DNA from: Christensenellales bacterium
GTDB lineage: Bacteria > Bacillota > Clostridia > Christensenellales > UBA1242
Direction of reading: 5' to 3'
Assembly (NCBI GenBank): GCA_051883495.1
Contig: JBJETV010000006.1
Span: 2,160-66,159 of the forward strand
DNA: 64,000 bases
Shown: piece by piece, positions 3,950 to 47,649 of the stretch
Layout: each line of letters begins with the position of its first letter
Position numbering within the stretch: the stretch's first letter is position 1
Translations under genes and position numbers: made by a program
The notes under the pieces: model-generated
Database searches by the model: none
The model's input: only the letters and a program-made list of their open reading frames with translations
What the model was told of the DNA's origin: nothing

Positions 3950-4257
3950 AATGAAGGGTTATGTGCCAAATAATTTTGGTGCAAAACTCTTTTTTTTGTT
4001 TACATAAATTTACCCAATATTTGAAATTCTAATAATAGGGAAGATATCCAAAAGAAAAACAAAAAAACAAAAAAAAACAGAAAGTTGTGTTATCAAAACT
4101 ATCAACTAATAAAAACTTGTATGTTATCGAGTTGAAAAAAACAACTAATAAATGAAACAACAAATAATATGGCTAGTAAACGAAACAAAAAATGCAAATA
4201 ACACAATGAGAAATAGAAATTGGATATCAAAAAAAACAACAATAGGAGAGAGAAATT

Positions 4258-5592
4258 ATGAAGAAAAGGTTGACACTGTTAATATTTACTGCGTGTGCGG
4301 TGTTTGTTGGTTCTGTGGGGCTAATATTTTGGGCACTCGCTGCAACTCAAGTAAATATAACTTCAGGACTATTAGTTACATACAACCCAACTCCGCAAGT
4401 AGTGTGCAATGCCAGTGCAACTTATCAAAGGACTAATGACGCCAGCGCAATTGCATTTAAGAACGGCAATCTAAGTTTTGTATATGGTGGCGCAACAACC
4501 GATGCAACAATGGAGGCAACAAGTACTGCATTGCAACTGGACGATAGCAATACATATGTGGTGTTTGAGTTTACATTTGTAAACCAAAACCTTATGGAAA
4601 ACTACGACCTAACTATAACTCTATCCGACAACGGCACAGTAACAAATATGACAAGAAAATACTACTTTGGCGACCTATCTTCTTCCAATATATCCGCAAA
4701 AAGAACTACTATCAAAAACTCTGGCATAGACAATTCTTCGCTCTCTTCCAAAAAACTAGTCCTAGGCTACCAAGAAACAGGCAGAATATATATGCTCCTC
4801 GAAATCACCCCCGGCACAGTAGCCAACTACCTAGCAGACAATACCAACAAGTTTGTCTTTAACATGACCACTGCAGAGCATGTAGAAGTTGAAACAGTAG
4901 CTTATCTTACAAGAAACTGGACAAGTAGGATAAATGATGACACATCTCTACATGATACAACAACCACTATAAGATTTACCCAAGACGAATCACAAATAGC
5001 AGGGCTTACCAATAGTGTATCTGTGGGAACAAATAGCGAAACTGACACTTCTGCATATGTAGCATCTGATACTATAAGTGATGTAACAGCCTACTGGGGT
5101 AGTGATAAATCTACAATTGTGCTATACTCTCCAGGTATAATATATGCTCCACAAGATTCTAGTTTCTTGTTTACTATAGGATTAGTATCTGGGGGTGGAT
5201 TTCCCGCTCTTACAACATTAGATTTAAGCAACTTTGATACAAGAAATGTAACAGATATGTCATATATGTTTGACACTTGCTACTCACTAACGAGCCTTGA
5301 CCTTGGAAACATCAACCTTGAGAGTTGTACAAACTTTAGTGGAATGTTTGAAGGTGTGGTAATTAAAAGTGGTTTTACTCCAGCTTGTAGTCTTAACACA
5401 ATTGTTTTGCCATACAATATTCAAGAAGGTTATACCATAAATCTGCCATACTTTTTATTATATTATGCTGCCTATTCAAAGGATGGAGTTGGTTCTTATC
5501 AAATAGTTGGAACAATGACAAATGGAACGACGATTGCGTGTTCTACCGAAAACGAAAAAGTCACATTGGAATTAGAAGGTGTTTATATGTGA
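4258..5592 (+). CDS. Signal-anchored surface protein with DUF285/BspA-like leucine-rich repeats
   Basis: SD AGGAGAGAG precedes the ATG. The N-terminal helix is LLIFTACAVFVGSVGLIFWAL. The C-terminal motif LDLSNFDTRNVTDMSYMFDTCYSLTSLDLGNINLESCTNFSGMFEG is typical of the DUF285/BspA LRR family. Confidence 0.7.
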   Translation: MKKRLTLLIFTACAVFVGSVGLIFWALAATQVNITSGLLVTYNPTPQVVCNASATYQRTNDASAIAFKNGNLSFVYGGATTDATMEATSTALQLDDSNTYVVFEFTFVNQNLMENYDLTITLSDNGTVTNMTRKYYFGDLSSSNISAKRTTIKNSGIDNSSLSSKKLVLGYQETGRIYMLLEITPGTVANYLADNTNKFVFNMTTAEHVEVETVAYLTRNWTSRINDDTSLHDTTTTIRFTQDESQIAGLTNSVSVGTNSETDTSAYVASDTISDVTAYWGSDKSTIVLYSPGIIYAPQDSSFLFTIGLVSGGGFPALTTLDLSNFDTRNVTDMSYMFDTCYSLTSLDLGNINLESCTNFSGMFEGVVIKSGFTPACSLNTIVLPYNIQEGYTINLPYFLLYYAAYSKDGVGSYQIVGTMTNGTTIACSTENEKVTLELEGVYM

Positions 5593-5949: not shown

Positions 5950-5978
5950 TTGATTTTTGGTGAATTGTTTGGTATATT
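5950..5978 (+). promoter_or_regulatory. Sigma-A-type promoter of the rpsF operon (TTGATT-17-TGgTATATT)
   Basis: -35 TTGATT at 5950-5955, extended -10 TGG-TATATT at 5970-5978, 17-nt spacer. It lies about 80 nt upstream of rpsF. Confidence 0.55.
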
Positions 5979-6059: not shown

Positions 6060-6344
6060 ATGTCAAAATACGAAGTGCTTTATGTCATTTCACCATCACT
6101 TTCTGAAGAAGAAAGAGAAGGGGTTATCGCAAAGTTCAAAAATTATGTTGAACAAAATGGCGGAACAGTAAGCGGTATTGACAAATGGGGTATGAAGACT
6201 CTTGCATATCCAATCAAATTCAAAAAGGAAGGATTTTATGTCCTTATGACCTTTGAATCCCCAAAAGAAACAAGCATCGCTATGGGCAAACTGTTGCTTA
6301 TTACTGATAGCATTTTGAGAAACATTATTGTCTGCAAAGACTAA
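6060..6344 (+). CDS. rpsF: 30S ribosomal protein bS6
   Basis: MSKYEVLYVISPSLSEEEREG is a typical S6 N-terminus. SD AAGGAGG at 6046-6052. The track ORF start at 6018 is upstream read-through. Confidence 0.95.
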   Translation: MSKYEVLYVISPSLSEEEREGVIAKFKNYVEQNGGTVSGIDKWGMKTLAYPIKFKKEGFYVLMTFESPKETSIAMGKLLLITDSILRNIIVCKD

Positions 6345-6371: not shown

Positions 6372-6764
6372 ATGAACAAAGTTATTTTGGTTGGAAATTT
6401 AACAAAAGACCCAGAGCTATCCACCACAAACAGTGGCATCAACTATTGCAGGTTTACATTGGCTGTGCCAAAGAGATTTGCTCAAAGTGGCGAAAGGGAT
6501 GCCGAGTTTATCAATATTGTTGTATGGAGAGTTCAAGCGGACAACTGCCACAAATATCTTAGAAAAGGTAGCAAGGCTGGTATCGTTGGTAGCCTGCAAA
6601 CTAGAAGTTATGACGCTCAAGACGGCTCAAAGAGATATGTTACAGAAGTTGTAGCAGAAGAAGTTGAATTTCTAAGTTCAAAAACTTCAAATGAACAATC
6701 TTCGCAAAGTGAACCTCAATCGGCAGAACTTCAACCTATTGAAGACGACACTTTGCCATTCTAG
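6372..6764 (+). CDS. ssb: Single-stranded DNA-binding protein
   Basis: OB-fold N-terminus MNKVILVGNLTKDPEL, a Q/S-rich linker, and the acidic C-terminal tip DDTLPF. Confidence 0.95.
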   Translation: MNKVILVGNLTKDPELSTTNSGINYCRFTLAVPKRFAQSGERDAEFINIVVWRVQADNCHKYLRKGSKAGIVGSLQTRSYDAQDGSKRYVTEVVAEEVEFLSSKTSNEQSSQSEPQSAELQPIEDDTLPF

Positions 6765-6773
6765 GAGGGTAAA

Positions 6774-6887
6774 ATGTTTGAGATAGAAAATAGATTCTTT
6801 ATGTCATGCGACCACGACTGTGAACACTGCTGTGGATGTTCGTATGATGATGACGATGATGACGATGACGAAGAAAGTGAAGATTAA
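6774..6887 (+). CDS. Unannotated 37-codon Cys/His/Asp-rich sORF ([37 protein letters not shown])
   Basis: SD AGGAGGG at 6763-6769 overlaps the ssb stop; ATG at 6774; TAA at 6885-6887. It is below the 60-aa cut-off of the ORF track. Its Cys module is shared with the gene at 7312. Confidence 0.55.
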
Positions 6888-6916
6888 ATCTTTATCCAAT
6901 TAAAAGGAGAAATGAA

Positions 6917-7201
6917 ATGACTGAACAACAAAACGTTCCTGCAAAAGAAGTTGCAGAATCAGTTGAGAAAATTGCAAAAAGGCCAAAGAGAGTAAACAAG
7001 AAAAAGGTTTGCATGTTCTGTGCCGACAGAAGCAAGGTTATCGACTACAAAGATGTCGCAACTCTTAAGAGATTTGTTACAGAAAAGGGCAAGATTGTCC
7101 CTCGCCGTCAAACAGGCACATGTGCTATGCACCAAAGAGAAATCACTGTGGCTGTTAAACGTGCAAGAAATGTAGCATTGCTCCCATTTAGAGGAGAATA
7201 A
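6917..7201 (+). CDS. rpsR: 30S ribosomal protein bS18
   Basis: [48 protein letters not shown] is a conserved S18 core. SD AAAGGAGA lies upstream. Confidence 0.95.
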
Positions 7202-7235
7202 TTGCATTTTGATTTGATATATTCAAATTTATTTC

Positions 7236-7275
7236 AAAACCTGAGGGATAAACCTTGGGTTTTGTTTTGTTTTTG
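7236..7275 (+). terminator. Rho-independent terminator after rpsR
   Basis: AACCTGAGG-gataaa-CCTTGGGTT (9 bp including 2 G-U pairs), followed by TTGTTTTGTTTTT. Confidence 0.6.
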
Positions 7276-7311: not shown

Positions 7312-7935
7312 ATGAAAAAAGAAAATAGCAAAGAACAACAATATGGTGATATTATTTACAACCACGACCTAAAAAAGCACACTATTATGGTGGCTGGCTT
7401 TCCTGCAATGATTACAAGTTATGTTGCAGGTGGGAAAACATTGTTCAAAGGTTTTTTGCCTGGATTTGAATTTGCACAAGTGGAGGGAATAGCAGACGAA
7501 TCCGAATGTGTAGAGTATCTTCAAGATATGCTAGATGACGAAGTGGAAGAATTGGTTGTTTTTGGCAAATCTTTGCCTCCTGTGGCAGAAGATGATGTGC
7601 TTTTGCGTCAGTATCCAGGCTACAAGATAGCATATTTGGATATCAACGTGTATGCAACCAACAATGATGAAGATTATTACGATTGCACACACGATTGCTC
7701 TTGTTGCAGTGGACATTGCCACGAAGCAGAATGTGATGACGACTGTGATTGTGAAGACGATTGTGATTGTGATGATGACTGCGACTGCGAAGACGACTGC
7801 GATTGTGAAGATGATTGTTGTTGTGAAGACGACTGCGACTGTGATGATGACGATGACGATGATGACGACGATGATGACGACGATGATGATGACGATGATG
7901 ATGACGATGATGATGACGATGACGATGACGACTAA
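7312..7935 (+). CDS. Acidic Cys/Asp-repeat protein with C-terminal Asp30 tail (function unknown)
   Basis: Long ORF. GGGG at 7301-7304 is spaced correctly for the ATG at 7312; the alternative ATG at 7306 is only 1 nt from it. The unknown N-terminal domain is followed by YYDCTHDCSCCSGHCHEAEC, six DDCDC(E/D) units, and 30 Asp. Confidence 0.75.
   Translation: MKKENSKEQQYGDIIYNHDLKKHTIMVAGFPAMITSYVAGGKTLFKGFLPGFEFAQVEGIADESECVEYLQDMLDDEVEELVVFGKSLPPVAEDDVLLRQYPGYKIAYLDINVYATNNDEDYYDCTHDCSCCSGHCHEAECDDDCDCEDDCDCDDDCDCEDDCDCEDDCCCEDDCDCDDDDDDDDDDDDDDDDDDDDDDDDDDDDDD
7738..7932 (+). repeat. Coding minisatellite: 6 x 18-nt (DDCDCE) units followed by a 90-nt GAT/GAC tract
   Basis: The units start at 7738, 7756, 7774, 7792, 7810 and 7828. 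Nt 7843-7932 are 30 consecutive Asp codons, including three GATGATGATGAC 12-mers. Confidence 0.95.
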
Positions 7936-7950
7936 GATAAAAGGCTGAAT

Positions 7951-10188
7951 ATGAAGATAAGTGGCTCGATTGAAGACATAATATACAAAAATCCTGACAA
8001 CGGATACACTGTCCTTAACATAGATTATAAGGGCAGACTTTTGACATGCGTAGGCAAAACTGTGTCTGCCAATGTGGGCGAAGATGTGGAGTTGGACGGC
8101 GAATTTGTCCAAAATAGCAAGTTTGGAGAGCAGTTTGCCTTTGTAAAAATAGAAACAGTAGAGCCAAAATCAGTGGAAAGCATAAAAAAATACTTAGCAA
8201 GTGGGCTTATAAGGGGTATTGGCCCAGTAACAGCAGAGGCTATTGTTAGGAAGTTTGGCACAGACACATTAAGTGTGCTGGAATATGCTCCTACAAGGCT
8301 TAAGGAAGTGCGAGGAATAAGCGAAAAAAAAGCATTTGAAATAGCACAAAACTATGGGGATATAAAGAAAATGCAAAATGCTGTTATCTTTTTGCAACAA
8401 TATGACATTTCGACCAATTTATCTGTTAAGATATTTAATTTTTATAAAGATAAAACGATAGAAACTGTATCTCAAAACCCTTACGCTTTGGTTGAAGATA
8501 TTGCAGGAGTGGGCTTTTTGTCTGCGGATAGAATTGCCTTTAAGATGGGGATAGAGCCAACATCAGACTTTAGAATTAGGGCAGGAATTTTGCATCTTTT
8601 ATCCGAGTTTTCGGACAAAAATGGGCATACTTATATCCCAAAAGAGCAATTATTTTCGGCAGAAGTTGACCTTTTGGGGCTGGATATAGAAACACTTTCT
8701 CCTATTTTTGAAGACCAAATAGAAAGGTTGGAGATTGAAAGTGTTATAAGGGTTTTTGATTACAAGGACACGCCTTGTGTGTGTTTGAAAAAGTTTTATT
8801 ATATGGAAAGTAGTATTTCCGCCAAATTGATAATGCAAAGCATGTCAAAGGTGGAGCAAAATATTGATGTAGAAAGGGAAATTTCAGAATATGAACGCAT
8901 AAACAAAATTAAACTTCACGAAACACAAAAAGATGCAGTGAGAGAGGCTGTTTTGGGGCAAGTTACGGTGATAACAGGCGGGCCAGGAACAGGCAAAACA
9001 ACCATTGTAAAATGTATTTTGCAAGCGCTAAAAAAATGGACAAACAGGGTGCTTTTGCTTGCTCCAACAGGTAGAGCATCAAAAAGATTGTCGGAGGCGT
9101 GCAACCACAAGGCAAGCACTATTCATAGAGCACTTGAAATGACTTACAAAGAGGGCGAGCAAGCGGTGTTTAATTACAACGAAAAAAATAAACTTATTGT
9201 CGATTGCGTAATTGTAGACGAAATGAGTATGGTTGATGTGTCGTTGTTTTACAGTTTGTTAAAAGCCCTCCCAGCAACATGCAAAGTGATTTTGGTCGGA
9301 GATAAGGACCAACTGCCTAGTGTTGGGGCAGGCAATGTGTTGCATGATATAATAGGAAGCAAGACAATCCCTGTTGTAAAACTTTCGCAAATTTATAGGC
9401 AAGATGACCAAAGTTTGATTGTAACCAACGCCCACCTTATCAACGAAGGCAAAATGCCCGACCTTAGCAACAAGTCAAAAGACTTTTTTTATGAAAACAG
9501 ACAAGACCCACAAGAAATGTATGAAACAGTGGTACAACTGGCGACCAAAAGATTGCCAAAATTCCTTAACTGCAAGCCAGAAGATATTCAGGTGTTGTGT
9601 GCAATGAAATCTGGCATTTGTGGAGTGGAAAATCTAAACAAAAAGTTGCAAGAAGTGATAAATCCACATATGCTCCGCAAGACAGAGATTAACTTTGAAA
9701 CAAGGTGCCTTAGAGAGGGCGATAAGGTTATGCAAACAGTGAACAATTATGACCTAGAATGGAGCAAAGAGTATGGAAAGGATATGACCGAGATCGGCAA
9801 GGGAGTATTTAATGGCGACATAGGGAAGATAGAAAAGATAGACTACCAAACTGGCGAAACAACAGTTATCTTTGATGACGACAGAAAAGTGGTTTATTCC
9901 AAGGCAGATTTGTTTGAGTTGTATATTTGCTATGCCACAACTATTCACAAAAGTCAGGGCAGTGAGTTTGATGCAGTGATTGTGCCAGTAGTTGCTGGTT
10001 CCAATCAAATTATTACACGAAATTTGCTTTATACAGCGGTTACAAGGGCAAAGAAATTGGTTGTGCTGGTCGGACCAAAAAAGAATATTGCAAGAATGAT
10101 TTTTAACAATTACACCGCCAAAAGATATAGTATGCTGGAGGAATTGTTGAAACTTCAAAAATCAAAAGCGGACAGCCTCTACTCATAA
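7951..10188 (+). CDS. recD2: RecD2-type SF1 DNA helicase (RecD/TraA family)
   Basis: 745 aa. Walker A VITGGPGTGKTT, motifs CVIVDEMSMVD and LVGDKDQLPSVGAG, and C-terminal YATTIHKSQGSEF...LLYTAVTRAK. Confidence 0.9.
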   Translation: MKISGSIEDIIYKNPDNGYTVLNIDYKGRLLTCVGKTVSANVGEDVELDGEFVQNSKFGEQFAFVKIETVEPKSVESIKKYLASGLIRGIGPVTAEAIVRKFGTDTLSVLEYAPTRLKEVRGISEKKAFEIAQNYGDIKKMQNAVIFLQQYDISTNLSVKIFNFYKDKTIETVSQNPYALVEDIAGVGFLSADRIAFKMGIEPTSDFRIRAGILHLLSEFSDKNGHTYIPKEQLFSAEVDLLGLDIETLSPIFEDQIERLEIESVIRVFDYKDTPCVCLKKFYYMESSISAKLIMQSMSKVEQNIDVEREISEYERINKIKLHETQKDAVREAVLGQVTVITGGPGTGKTTIVKCILQALKKWTNRVLLLAPTGRASKRLSEACNHKASTIHRALEMTYKEGEQAVFNYNEKNKLIVDCVIVDEMSMVDVSLFYSLLKALPATCKVILVGDKDQLPSVGAGNVLHDIIGSKTIPVVKLSQIYRQDDQSLIVTNAHLINEGKMPDLSNKSKDFFYENRQDPQEMYETVVQLATKRLPKFLNCKPEDIQVLCAMKSGICGVENLNKKLQEVINPHMLRKTEINFETRCLREGDKVMQTVNNYDLEWSKEYGKDMTEIGKGVFNGDIGKIEKIDYQTGETTVIFDDDRKVVYSKADLFELYICYATTIHKSQGSEFDAVIVPVVAGSNQIITRNLLYTAVTRAKKLVVLVGPKKNIARMIFNNYTAKRYSMLEELLKLQKSKADSLYS

Positions 10189-41350: not shown

Positions 41351-41536
41351 ATGGCAAGAAAAGCAATGATTAACAAACAGCAAAGACAGCAAAAATACAA
41401 AACTAGAGAATACACAAGATGTTCCATTTGTGGACGTCCACACGCTGTGCTCAAAAAGTATGGAATTTGCAGAATTTGCTTTAGAAATTTGGCTTACAAA
41501 GGCGAAATACCTGGTGTTAAAAAGGCTAGTTGGTAA
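41351..41536 (+). CDS. rpsZ: 30S ribosomal protein uS14, type Z (zinc form)
   Basis: 61 aa with [20 protein letters not shown]. Confidence 0.96.
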
Positions 41537-45626: not shown

Positions 45627-46265
45627 ATGAAAATCGTGCTACTTGGCCCTCCTGGAAGTGGGAAGGGAACTCAGGCAGAACTTATTTGCAACAAATATAA
45701 CATTCCTCACATCTCCACTGGTGATATTTTTAGACAAAATATAAGAGAAAAAACTCCACTGGGTGTGAGCATTGAGGAATGTATTGCAAAGGGCGAATTG
45801 GTCCCAGATAGTATAACAAACCTTGTGGTTAAGGATAGACTTTCAAAGGAAGATTGCCAAAAAGGATTTGTTTTGGATGGTTTTCCTAGAAGTTTAGAAC
45901 AAAGTAAGTTTTTGGACTCAATAACCAACATTGACAAGGCTATTATGATTGACCTTGAAGATGACGAGATTGTAAAAAGACTTTCCACAAGAAGAATGTG
46001 TAGGAAATGTGGAAATCCTACAAATGTGGACTGGTTGGTTGATGGCAAATGTGAGAAGTGTGGTGGAGAAGTTTTCATCAGACAAGACGATATGCCAGAA
46101 ACAATAAAAACCAGACTCGCAAAGCAAAAACTTCCACAAGATGTTATAGATTTCTATCAAAGCAAGAACATTTTTGAAAGAGTGAGTTCACTCGGCGGAA
46201 AAGAAAAAACTTTTGATTTGGTGGACAAAATTCTTGCTAGTTTGAAAAGACAGGCAAAAAAATGA
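45627..46265 (+). CDS. adk: Adenylate kinase (Cys4 zinc-lid form)
   Basis: MKIVLLGPPGSGKGTQA and lid CRKCG...CEKCGG. Confidence 0.96.
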   Translation: MKIVLLGPPGSGKGTQAELICNKYNIPHISTGDIFRQNIREKTPLGVSIEECIAKGELVPDSITNLVVKDRLSKEDCQKGFVLDGFPRSLEQSKFLDSITNIDKAIMIDLEDDEIVKRLSTRRMCRKCGNPTNVDWLVDGKCEKCGGEVFIRQDDMPETIKTRLAKQKLPQDVIDFYQSKNIFERVSSLGGKEKTFDLVDKILASLKRQAKK

Positions 46266-47535: not shown

Positions 47536-47649
47536 ATGAAAGTTAGACCATCAGTAAAACCTATTTGCGACAAATGCAAGGTTATCAAAAGAGAAGGGAA
47601 AGTTATGGTTATTTGCCCAAATAAAAAACATAAACAAACTCAAGGTTAA
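47536..47649 (+). CDS. rpmJ: 50S ribosomal protein bL36 (not in the ORF track, 37 aa)
   Basis: [37 protein letters not shown]; SD AAGGAGA at 47524-47530. Confidence 0.96.

Follow-up and report, generated by a model that had tools for sequence, protein, structure and literature searches.

The rpsF-ssb-rpsR operon of this Christensenellales bacterium, read here within a window of 64,000 nucleotides (the whole stretch of DNA analysed) from a metagenome-assembled genome (MAG), raises the question of what a reading frame of 37 codons represents in the spacer between ssb and rpsR: whether it is a gene, where such a gene would have come from, and what its product might do.

The reading frame and its operon

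The small open reading frame (sORF; Table 1) begins 9 nt past the ssb stop, and 29 nt separate its own stop codon from the ATG of rpsR. Its product has a length of 37 amino acids, with five Cys and two His within residues 12–22, followed in the C-terminal part by eight Asp and the ending EESED. Four of the Cys residues (C12, C16, C19, and C22) are spaced CX3CX2CX2C. The frame, the composition of the product, and the Shine-Dalgarno sequence (SD) lying over the ssb stop were found, when the sequence was re-read, exactly as described in an earlier model-made reading of the DNA alone (in the following, the sequence-only reading). That reading had also called the sORF hidden, which holds for the NCBI record, where SSB (MGN0798123.1) and S18 (MGN0798124.1) carry consecutive numbers with no gene in between, but not for other pipelines, which do call the ORF; its exact sequence is present in the ENA protein collection.

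A promoter-like site ahead of rpsF and a terminator-like hairpin (7235–7264) after rpsR bracket the operon, and no terminator was found between ssb and rpsR in a scan of the window operon. The sORF is thus placed inside the rpsF-ssb-rpsR transcription unit, in agreement with the proposal that it is co-transcribed with these genes. The SD of rpsR is the same one that is present in relatives without the sORF. Farther along the locus, Pfam also detects a RecD2-type helicase. Upstream of rpsF, the window encodes a 444-aa protein (4258–5592, + strand) whose N-terminus resembles a signal peptide and which contains a DUF285/leucine-rich-repeat region; in relatives, this place is taken by the spore-germination genes gerA, gerB, and gerC.

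Table 1. Features of the sORF locus, in window coordinates; L001 is introduced in the text.
Feature	Position	Strand	Description	Basis
Promoter-like site	5950..5978	+	TTGATT-17-TATATT, TG upstream; ahead of rpsF	Consensus scan, match to consensus only
rpsF (ribosomal protein S6)	6060..6344	+		Pfam Ribosomal_S6, E 6.7e-27
ssb	6372..6764	+	Complete; canonical acidic tip ...IEDDTLPF	Pfam SSB, E 3.4e-35
SD of sORF	6763..6769	+	AGGAGGG; overlaps ssb stop TAG (6762-6764)	
sORF	6774..6887	+	ATG 6774-6776, TAA 6885-6887; 37 codons + stop	Read directly
Cys module of sORF	6807..6839	+	Codons 12-22	Alignment; hhalign to the neighbour family's module
Acidic tail of sORF	6846..6884	+	Codons 25-37 (D8 + EESED), on a (GAT/GAC)n tract	
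SD of rpsR	6903..6909	+	AAAGGAG; rpsR ATG at 6917	Read directly
rpsR (S18)	6917..7201	+	CxxC...CxxH form	Pfam Ribosomal_S18, E 2.7e-26
Intrinsic-terminator-like hairpin + T run	7235..7274	+	After rpsR; kept in L001	
207-aa gene	7312..7935	+	425 nt downstream of sORF, behind the rpsR terminator	
HicB-like N-domain of 207-aa protein	about 7360-7659	+		AF2 + Foldseek
Cys module of 207-aa protein	7684-7719	+	CTHDCSCCSGHC	Read directly
DCDC/poly-Asp tail of 207-aa protein	7720-7932	+	Window copy ends in 32 Asp	

Conservation, coding constraint, and distribution

Homologues of the sORF occupy this site in no fewer than 14 independent assemblies, which represent approximately three species. One of them, L001 (a Logan assembly), is 89.5% identical to the window at the DNA level over 7.6 kb and therefore belongs to another species; L002, the representative of a GTDB species, has an S18 protein that is 93% identical and an sORF peptide that is 65% identical (MFDIDDEVFGPCDHDCANCSGCDYDDDDDYDDDDDSDSED). 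Further copies were found in several ENA and JGI metagenomes (L082–L092). An SD (AAGGAGG or AAGGGGG) precedes the sORF in all homologous loci of all three lineages. The encoded peptides are 35–42 amino acids long, with tails of variable length that contain 11–18 acidic residues and an acidic run that differs in length between strains. Across the alignment, M1, F2, I4, F9, C12, D13, H14, D15, C16, C19, G21, C22, and Y24 are invariant, as is the presence of the acidic tail; the N-terminal 11 residues evolve fast, and the conserved core reads C-D-H-D-C-x-x-C-x-G-C-x-Y.

The comparison of synonymous and non-synonymous changes that the sequence-only reading had proposed gave dN/dS values of 0.06–0.3 for the sORF (Nei-Gojobori 1986 method, NG86). 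Among close relatives, variable sites in the first 24 codons, which can be aligned unambiguously, were distributed 2:1:8 over the three codon positions, and in the Cys core (codons 12–24) 1:0:5, with C20S as the sole replacement. Between the window and L002, the flanking genes have diverged at dS 0.5–0.75 (NG86); in neutral simulations at the synonymous divergence of this pair, the start codon and open frame survived in 2–4% of the runs, the four Cys in less than 1%, and the ORF together with the core motif in fewer than 1 in 10,000. The RNA of the region 6750–6930 folds no better than shuffled sequences (z-score 0.16) and Rfam holds no family that matches inside the sORF, which places the constraint on the protein. 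These patterns of substitution mark the sORF as a real coding sequence under selection, and we infer that it is translated.

These data also bear on the possibility that the sORF is a non-functional relic, namely a 3′ fragment of the neighbouring gene that was copied into the spacer and has yet to decay. A very narrow distribution, the resemblance of the ORF to just the C-terminal module of a larger protein, and the lack of an NCBI annotation would all suit such a relic. However, the simulated losses given above are what would be expected of an unconstrained copy at this divergence, the SD has been kept in all three lineages, and the variation is biased to third codon positions, so that a decaying fragment is very unlikely.

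A further reading concerns the stop codon of ssb. The start codons of ssb and the sORF in the window are 402 nt apart (6774-6372), a distance divisible by three, so that the two ORFs share one frame, and TAG GAG GGT AAA alone (6762–6776) lies between them, as would suit a C-terminal extension of SSB produced by readthrough of the TAG stop. In L001 and L002, however, the offsets are 404 and 407 and the stops are TAA or TAA-TAA, the frame being broken by a 2-nt difference in the former and by a different spacer in the latter. The shared frame in the window is thus coincidental, since it is lost in both relatives; moreover, the canonical ...DD(T/S)LPF tip is already present at the end of SSB. Readthrough can be regarded as excluded.

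The distribution of the sORF was assessed at the rpsR loci of 80 GTDB species, namely those whose S18 proteins are the most similar. Only one of these species (L002) carries it. The sequence-only reading had described rpsF, ssb, and rpsR as directly adjacent genes in B. subtilis and other Firmicutes, and this is indeed the normal arrangement: in 78 of the 79 scorable loci, i.e., those holding both ssb and rpsR, no such ORF lies between the two. The next relatives (L003–L015, S18 74–82% identical) have ssb-rpsR spacers of 17–66 nt with just the SD of rpsR. Spacers are mostly short in the more distant loci too; those of L014, L026, and L056 measure approximately 300–570 nt and contain no comparable ORF on the coding strand. 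An exhaustive phmmer search of 1.84 billion representative proteins matched solely the sORF's own cluster, a word-indexed search with the peptide padded to 40 amino acids returned its own 90% cluster alone, and the same type of search with the L002-type peptide yielded no candidate. A metagenome scan with the sORF alignment added one further close relative, L092; a second hit, L093, was a false positive caused by an unrelated membrane or cupredoxin-like ORF.

Spacers without the ORF, which the sequence-only reading had named as evidence against a gene, are therefore the rule outside one narrow clade, whereas within that clade the ORF is conserved. This distribution indicates a recent, lineage-specific gene rather than a conserved part of the operon that had escaped notice. 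As far as these searches reach, the sORF is very young and confined to one genus-level clade of uncultured gut Christensenellales, and any role it has would be accessory, since the relatives manage without it.

Two other spacers hold short ORFs. In L011 (S18 63% identical), a spacer of 79 nt contains a 15-codon ORF (3951–3998; MHCDHDASHRLKKEK) without SD, whose CDHD match might be what is left of an older sORF or might be due to chance (p ~0.003–0.03 by rough estimate). The 101-nt spacer of L096 holds MFKVFLKNAEGRFFSLIF (4510–4614), which overlaps the ssb stop and is weakly similar to the sORF N-terminus (MF...RFF), probably by chance in T-rich DNA.

The neighbouring protein family and the Cys module

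The gene behind the rpsR terminator encodes a protein of 207 amino acids that belongs to a family of 110 homologous clusters, none of which has a Pfam domain and whose source-named members are all called 'hypothetical protein'. Searches with the protein and the family profile against Pfam, NCBIfam, PHROGs, and PDB sequences gave no match. Family members have 148–275 amino acids (148–216 among close strains) and share one architecture: a conserved N-domain (...GFLPGF...LQDMLDDEVEELVVFGKSLP...YLDINVYA), the module C-x-H-D-C-x-x-C-x-x-(x)-C, and a tail. The module, CX3CX2CX2-3C, is (almost) invariant and usually has His-Asp after the first Cys, and the tails are hypervariable, with DCDC, His-rich, and poly-Asp repeats. 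In an AF2 model of a family protein, residues 30–116 reached pLDDT values above 90, and the module and tail were disordered (pLDDT below 50 in the module). The best PDB matches of the N-domain in Foldseek were N-domains of HicB antitoxins (6g1c, 6g26, and 4p78), with TM scores of about 0.7 (target-normalised; 0.69–0.71 for 6g1c, the best match), an rmsd of 2.9 Å, and E values of about 6e-3; no HicA partner was noticed near the family gene.

In distant members the gene order is gerABC, rpsF, ssb, rpsR, [family gene], recD2, and family copies were seen in L001 (1511–2080), L002 (3072–3518), L003, L005, L009, L010, L013, L015, and L094–L097. Sub-threshold Rfam matches of the tail region (7722–7975, + strand) to archaeal/eukaryotic C/D-box snoRNAs (sR52, 31 bits against a gathering threshold of 50) are spurious and stem from the GATGA repeats that the poly-Asp codons form.

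The sequence-only reading had noted the motif C-x-H-D-C-x-x-C-x-G-x-C in both the sORF and the 207-aa protein and had taken the two for paralogues. The motif as written fits the 207-aa protein, but the sORF ends in C-x-G-C, with the last Cys one residue earlier, a mismatch that hhalign spans with a one-residue gap. The relation itself is supported by several observations. In hhalign, sORF residues 12–23 pair with family residues 125–137 (probability 74%, E 2.7e-5), and CTHDCSTCGGCSY of the family members P0079 and P0082 is identical to the sORF module at 9 of 13 positions. The pattern C..[DNH]C..C.{2,3}C, looked for in 1,793 six-frame fragments from the window, occurs in the sORF and the 207-aa gene only, and the sORF is the second-best match of the module HMM in the window, with an E value of 0.013 after heavy bias correction. 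In L086, a 42-aa variant of the sORF (P0012, 1356–1484) carries a DCDCDDD insert (GATTGCGATTGTGACGACGAT) whose 21 nt are identical to the family gene (1911–2495 in L086) from position 445 of that gene. The acidic tracts of the two genes lie approximately 1 kb apart in the window and approximately 600 bp apart in L086, and the shared 21 nt suggest gene conversion between them.

The sORF product and the 207-aa protein are thus probably paralogous at the level of the module, although not with certainty, because the homology comprises only about 12 aligned residues of Cys/Asp-rich low-complexity sequence. No sORF residue outside 12–23 aligns with the neighbour family, and an extension of the homology to the sORF N-terminus (MFDIDDEVF versus YLDINVY) was not supported by hhalign. 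Both proteins combine the module C-x-H-D-C-x-x-C-x-G-(x)-C, with its four Cys, and a following acidic tract of variable length, and both are encoded at the same locus. They differ in that the sORF lacks the HicB-like domain of about 100 residues, just 11 residues preceding its module, in length (37 versus 148–275 amino acids), and in transcription, the sORF being part of the ribosomal-protein operon and the family gene lying behind the rpsR terminator.

A translated ORF at this site could also act in cis, as a leader or bridging ORF whose translation matters and not its peptide. Translation might carry ribosomes over the inserted 150 nt and so keep ssb and rpsR coupled, or the run of 12–18 consecutive acidic residues, reached after only 24 residues, might provoke intrinsic ribosome destabilisation (IRD), by which the expression of rpsR would be adjusted to Mg2+ or to the state of the ribosomes. 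Acidic runs lead to stochastic abortion of translation, a risk that peaks close to N-termini, while the exit tunnel is still unfilled (bioRxiv 10.1101/2021.02.02.429294; PMC11162784). The sORF has its run at D25–D37, 29 nt before rpsR, and in this it resembles MgtL-type IRD leader peptides, short ORFs with an acidic run directly upstream of another gene. The location of the ORF in a spacer that measures 17–66 nt in relatives, 9 nt after the ssb stop, and the strain-to-strain differences in the length of the run are consistent with such a function, too.

In contrast to the loci of MgtL-type leaders, however, that of the sORF shows no attenuator or alternative RNA structure (z-score 0.16; no terminator between ssb and rpsR), and the Cys core of the sORF is conserved at the protein level. 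Neither coupling nor IRD accounts for an invariant Cys/His core with mostly synonymous change or for the match of this core to the neighbour's module; in addition, rpsR retains a strong SD of its own, and, in the 207-aa protein, the same genome translates 32 successive Asp. A cis-acting leader is therefore unlikely.

Origin and possible function of the microprotein

The sORF is probably a genuine translated microprotein gene that is recent in its clade, derives as a stand-alone copy from the module of the neighbouring protein, and encodes a putatively metal-binding product. A segment of approximately 130 nt with its own SD and ORF would have been inserted into the ssb-rpsR spacer (otherwise 17–66 nt) in the ancestor of the genus-level clade of uncultured gut Christensenellales. 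Because the segment sits in this spacer, the microprotein would be made from the rpsF-ssb-rpsR mRNA. The peptide would represent a free-standing version of the compact four-Cys site and acidic tail of the neighbour family, and the acidic tracts of the two genes may still exchange sequence. C12, C16, C19, and C22, possibly together with H14, could form a site for a metal ion or cluster (Zn2+ or Fe-S), and the poly-Asp tail might keep the peptide soluble, bind cations weakly, or dock to basic partners.

The four-Cys motif is most economically, and plausibly, read as a binding site for Zn2+ or an Fe-S cluster, as it is an invariant, compact thiolate site with an adjacent His-Asp and the tails of the family look like metal-storage sequences. 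Given a real gene, we would put metal binding by the peptide at roughly even odds. The spacing CX3CX2CX2C is that of neither a canonical zinc knuckle nor a ferredoxin; compared with the ferredoxin-type 4Fe-4S pattern CX2CX2CX3C(P), the sORF has the reverse order, and no Fe-S profile in Pfam matches it. No metal site in the PDB or Pfam corresponds to the module, and no profile, structure, or neighbouring gene points to a specific metal. The sORF gave no match in Pfam, NCBIfam, PHROGs, or a PDB sequence search, which agrees with the statement of the sequence-only reading that no described family with this arrangement was known to it, and a literature search for the sORF, ssb/rpsR, and peptide strings found nothing relevant. 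Nothing points to the spore-associated peptide that had been considered as well; the gene sits in a housekeeping operon.

Bacterial metallothioneins (SmtA/BmtA) and the His-rich tails of HypB, SlyD, and Hpn are Cys/His-dense and acidic and are disordered without metal. The sORF peptide is likewise small or tail-like, Cys/His-dense, and acidic; it would be intrinsically disordered without metal as well, and metal-binding chemistry would be expected of it. It differs from metallothioneins in having only four to five Cys and no sequence or profile match: Metallothio_Pro and related Pfam and NCBIfam models gave no sORF match beyond noise at E values up to 1–10. As a small ORF missed by annotation among ribosomal-protein genes it also recalls DUF4295, a small protein encoded next to L28/L33 in Bacteroidetes, for which an association with the ribosome has been proposed on the basis of gene position (Sberro et al., bioRxiv 10.1101/494179). 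DUF4295, however, is widespread across phyla and niches, whereas the sORF is limited to one narrow clade, and the sORF product is acidic, not basic, and shows no sequence similarity to it. By its predicted chemistry the sORF product would be another small Cys-rich putative metal-binding protein of a known class; the points of note are the gene birth and the HicB-like family, the latter apparently not described before.

The abundance of Cys and Asp in a small peptide is also a feature of RiPP precursors, such as those of radical-SAM thioether peptides of the SCIFF or ranthipeptide type. Precursors of this type are Cys-rich and form Cys-Asp crosslinks, and CX3CX2C-type spacing and Cys-x-x-x-Asp patterns are seen among known precursors of ranthipeptides. 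Yet no precursor model in NCBIfam or Pfam, those for SCIFF included, matches the sORF, and within approximately 5 kb neither a radical SAM/SPASM maturase nor a protease or exporter was found; the genes near the sORF are rpsF, ssb, rpsR, the HicB-like gene, recD2, a comF-like gene, and a large unidentified gene. A site inside an essential ribosomal-protein operon is also atypical for such precursors, and a RiPP is highly improbable.

With a metal-binding microprotein as the preferred reading, its position raises the issue of whether it acts on the products of the operon. The sequence-only reading had linked the sORF to the zinc forms of ribosomal and other proteins in this genome. Such forms are real, as the window encodes S14 with Cys4 (41351–41536), adenylate kinase with a Cys4 lid (45627–46265), L36 with C3H (47536–47649), and S18 with CxxC...CxxH (6917–7201), but the link was rejected because it has no discriminating value: 81 of 81 relatives carry the S18 motif, and the sORF is missing from nearly all of them. 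More specifically, the microprotein may have been fixed in the operon by acting on its partners, either by handing Zn or an Fe-S cluster to the Cys-type S18 or by poly-Asp mimicry of nucleic acid or of the SSB acidic tip on SSB or S6:S18. This is distinctly unlikely; were it true, the birth of a gene could be traced at this locus, from a domain fragment of a neighbouring gene to a new ribosome- or SSB-associated factor.

The practical reach of the sORF is limited by its confinement to a few uncultured species. Its value is that of a clean and datable case in which a protein-coding gene has newly appeared within the essential rpsF-ssb-rpsR operon, the apparent source being the Cys module of the gene next door, with recombination between both apparently still ongoing. 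The neighbour in turn represents an undescribed gut-Clostridia family of at least 110 clusters, in which a HicB-like domain is joined to a metallothionein-like Cys/Asp/His tail and whose genes are fixed next to rpsR. If the module binds metal, both proteins would bear on metal handling in uncultured Christensenellales.
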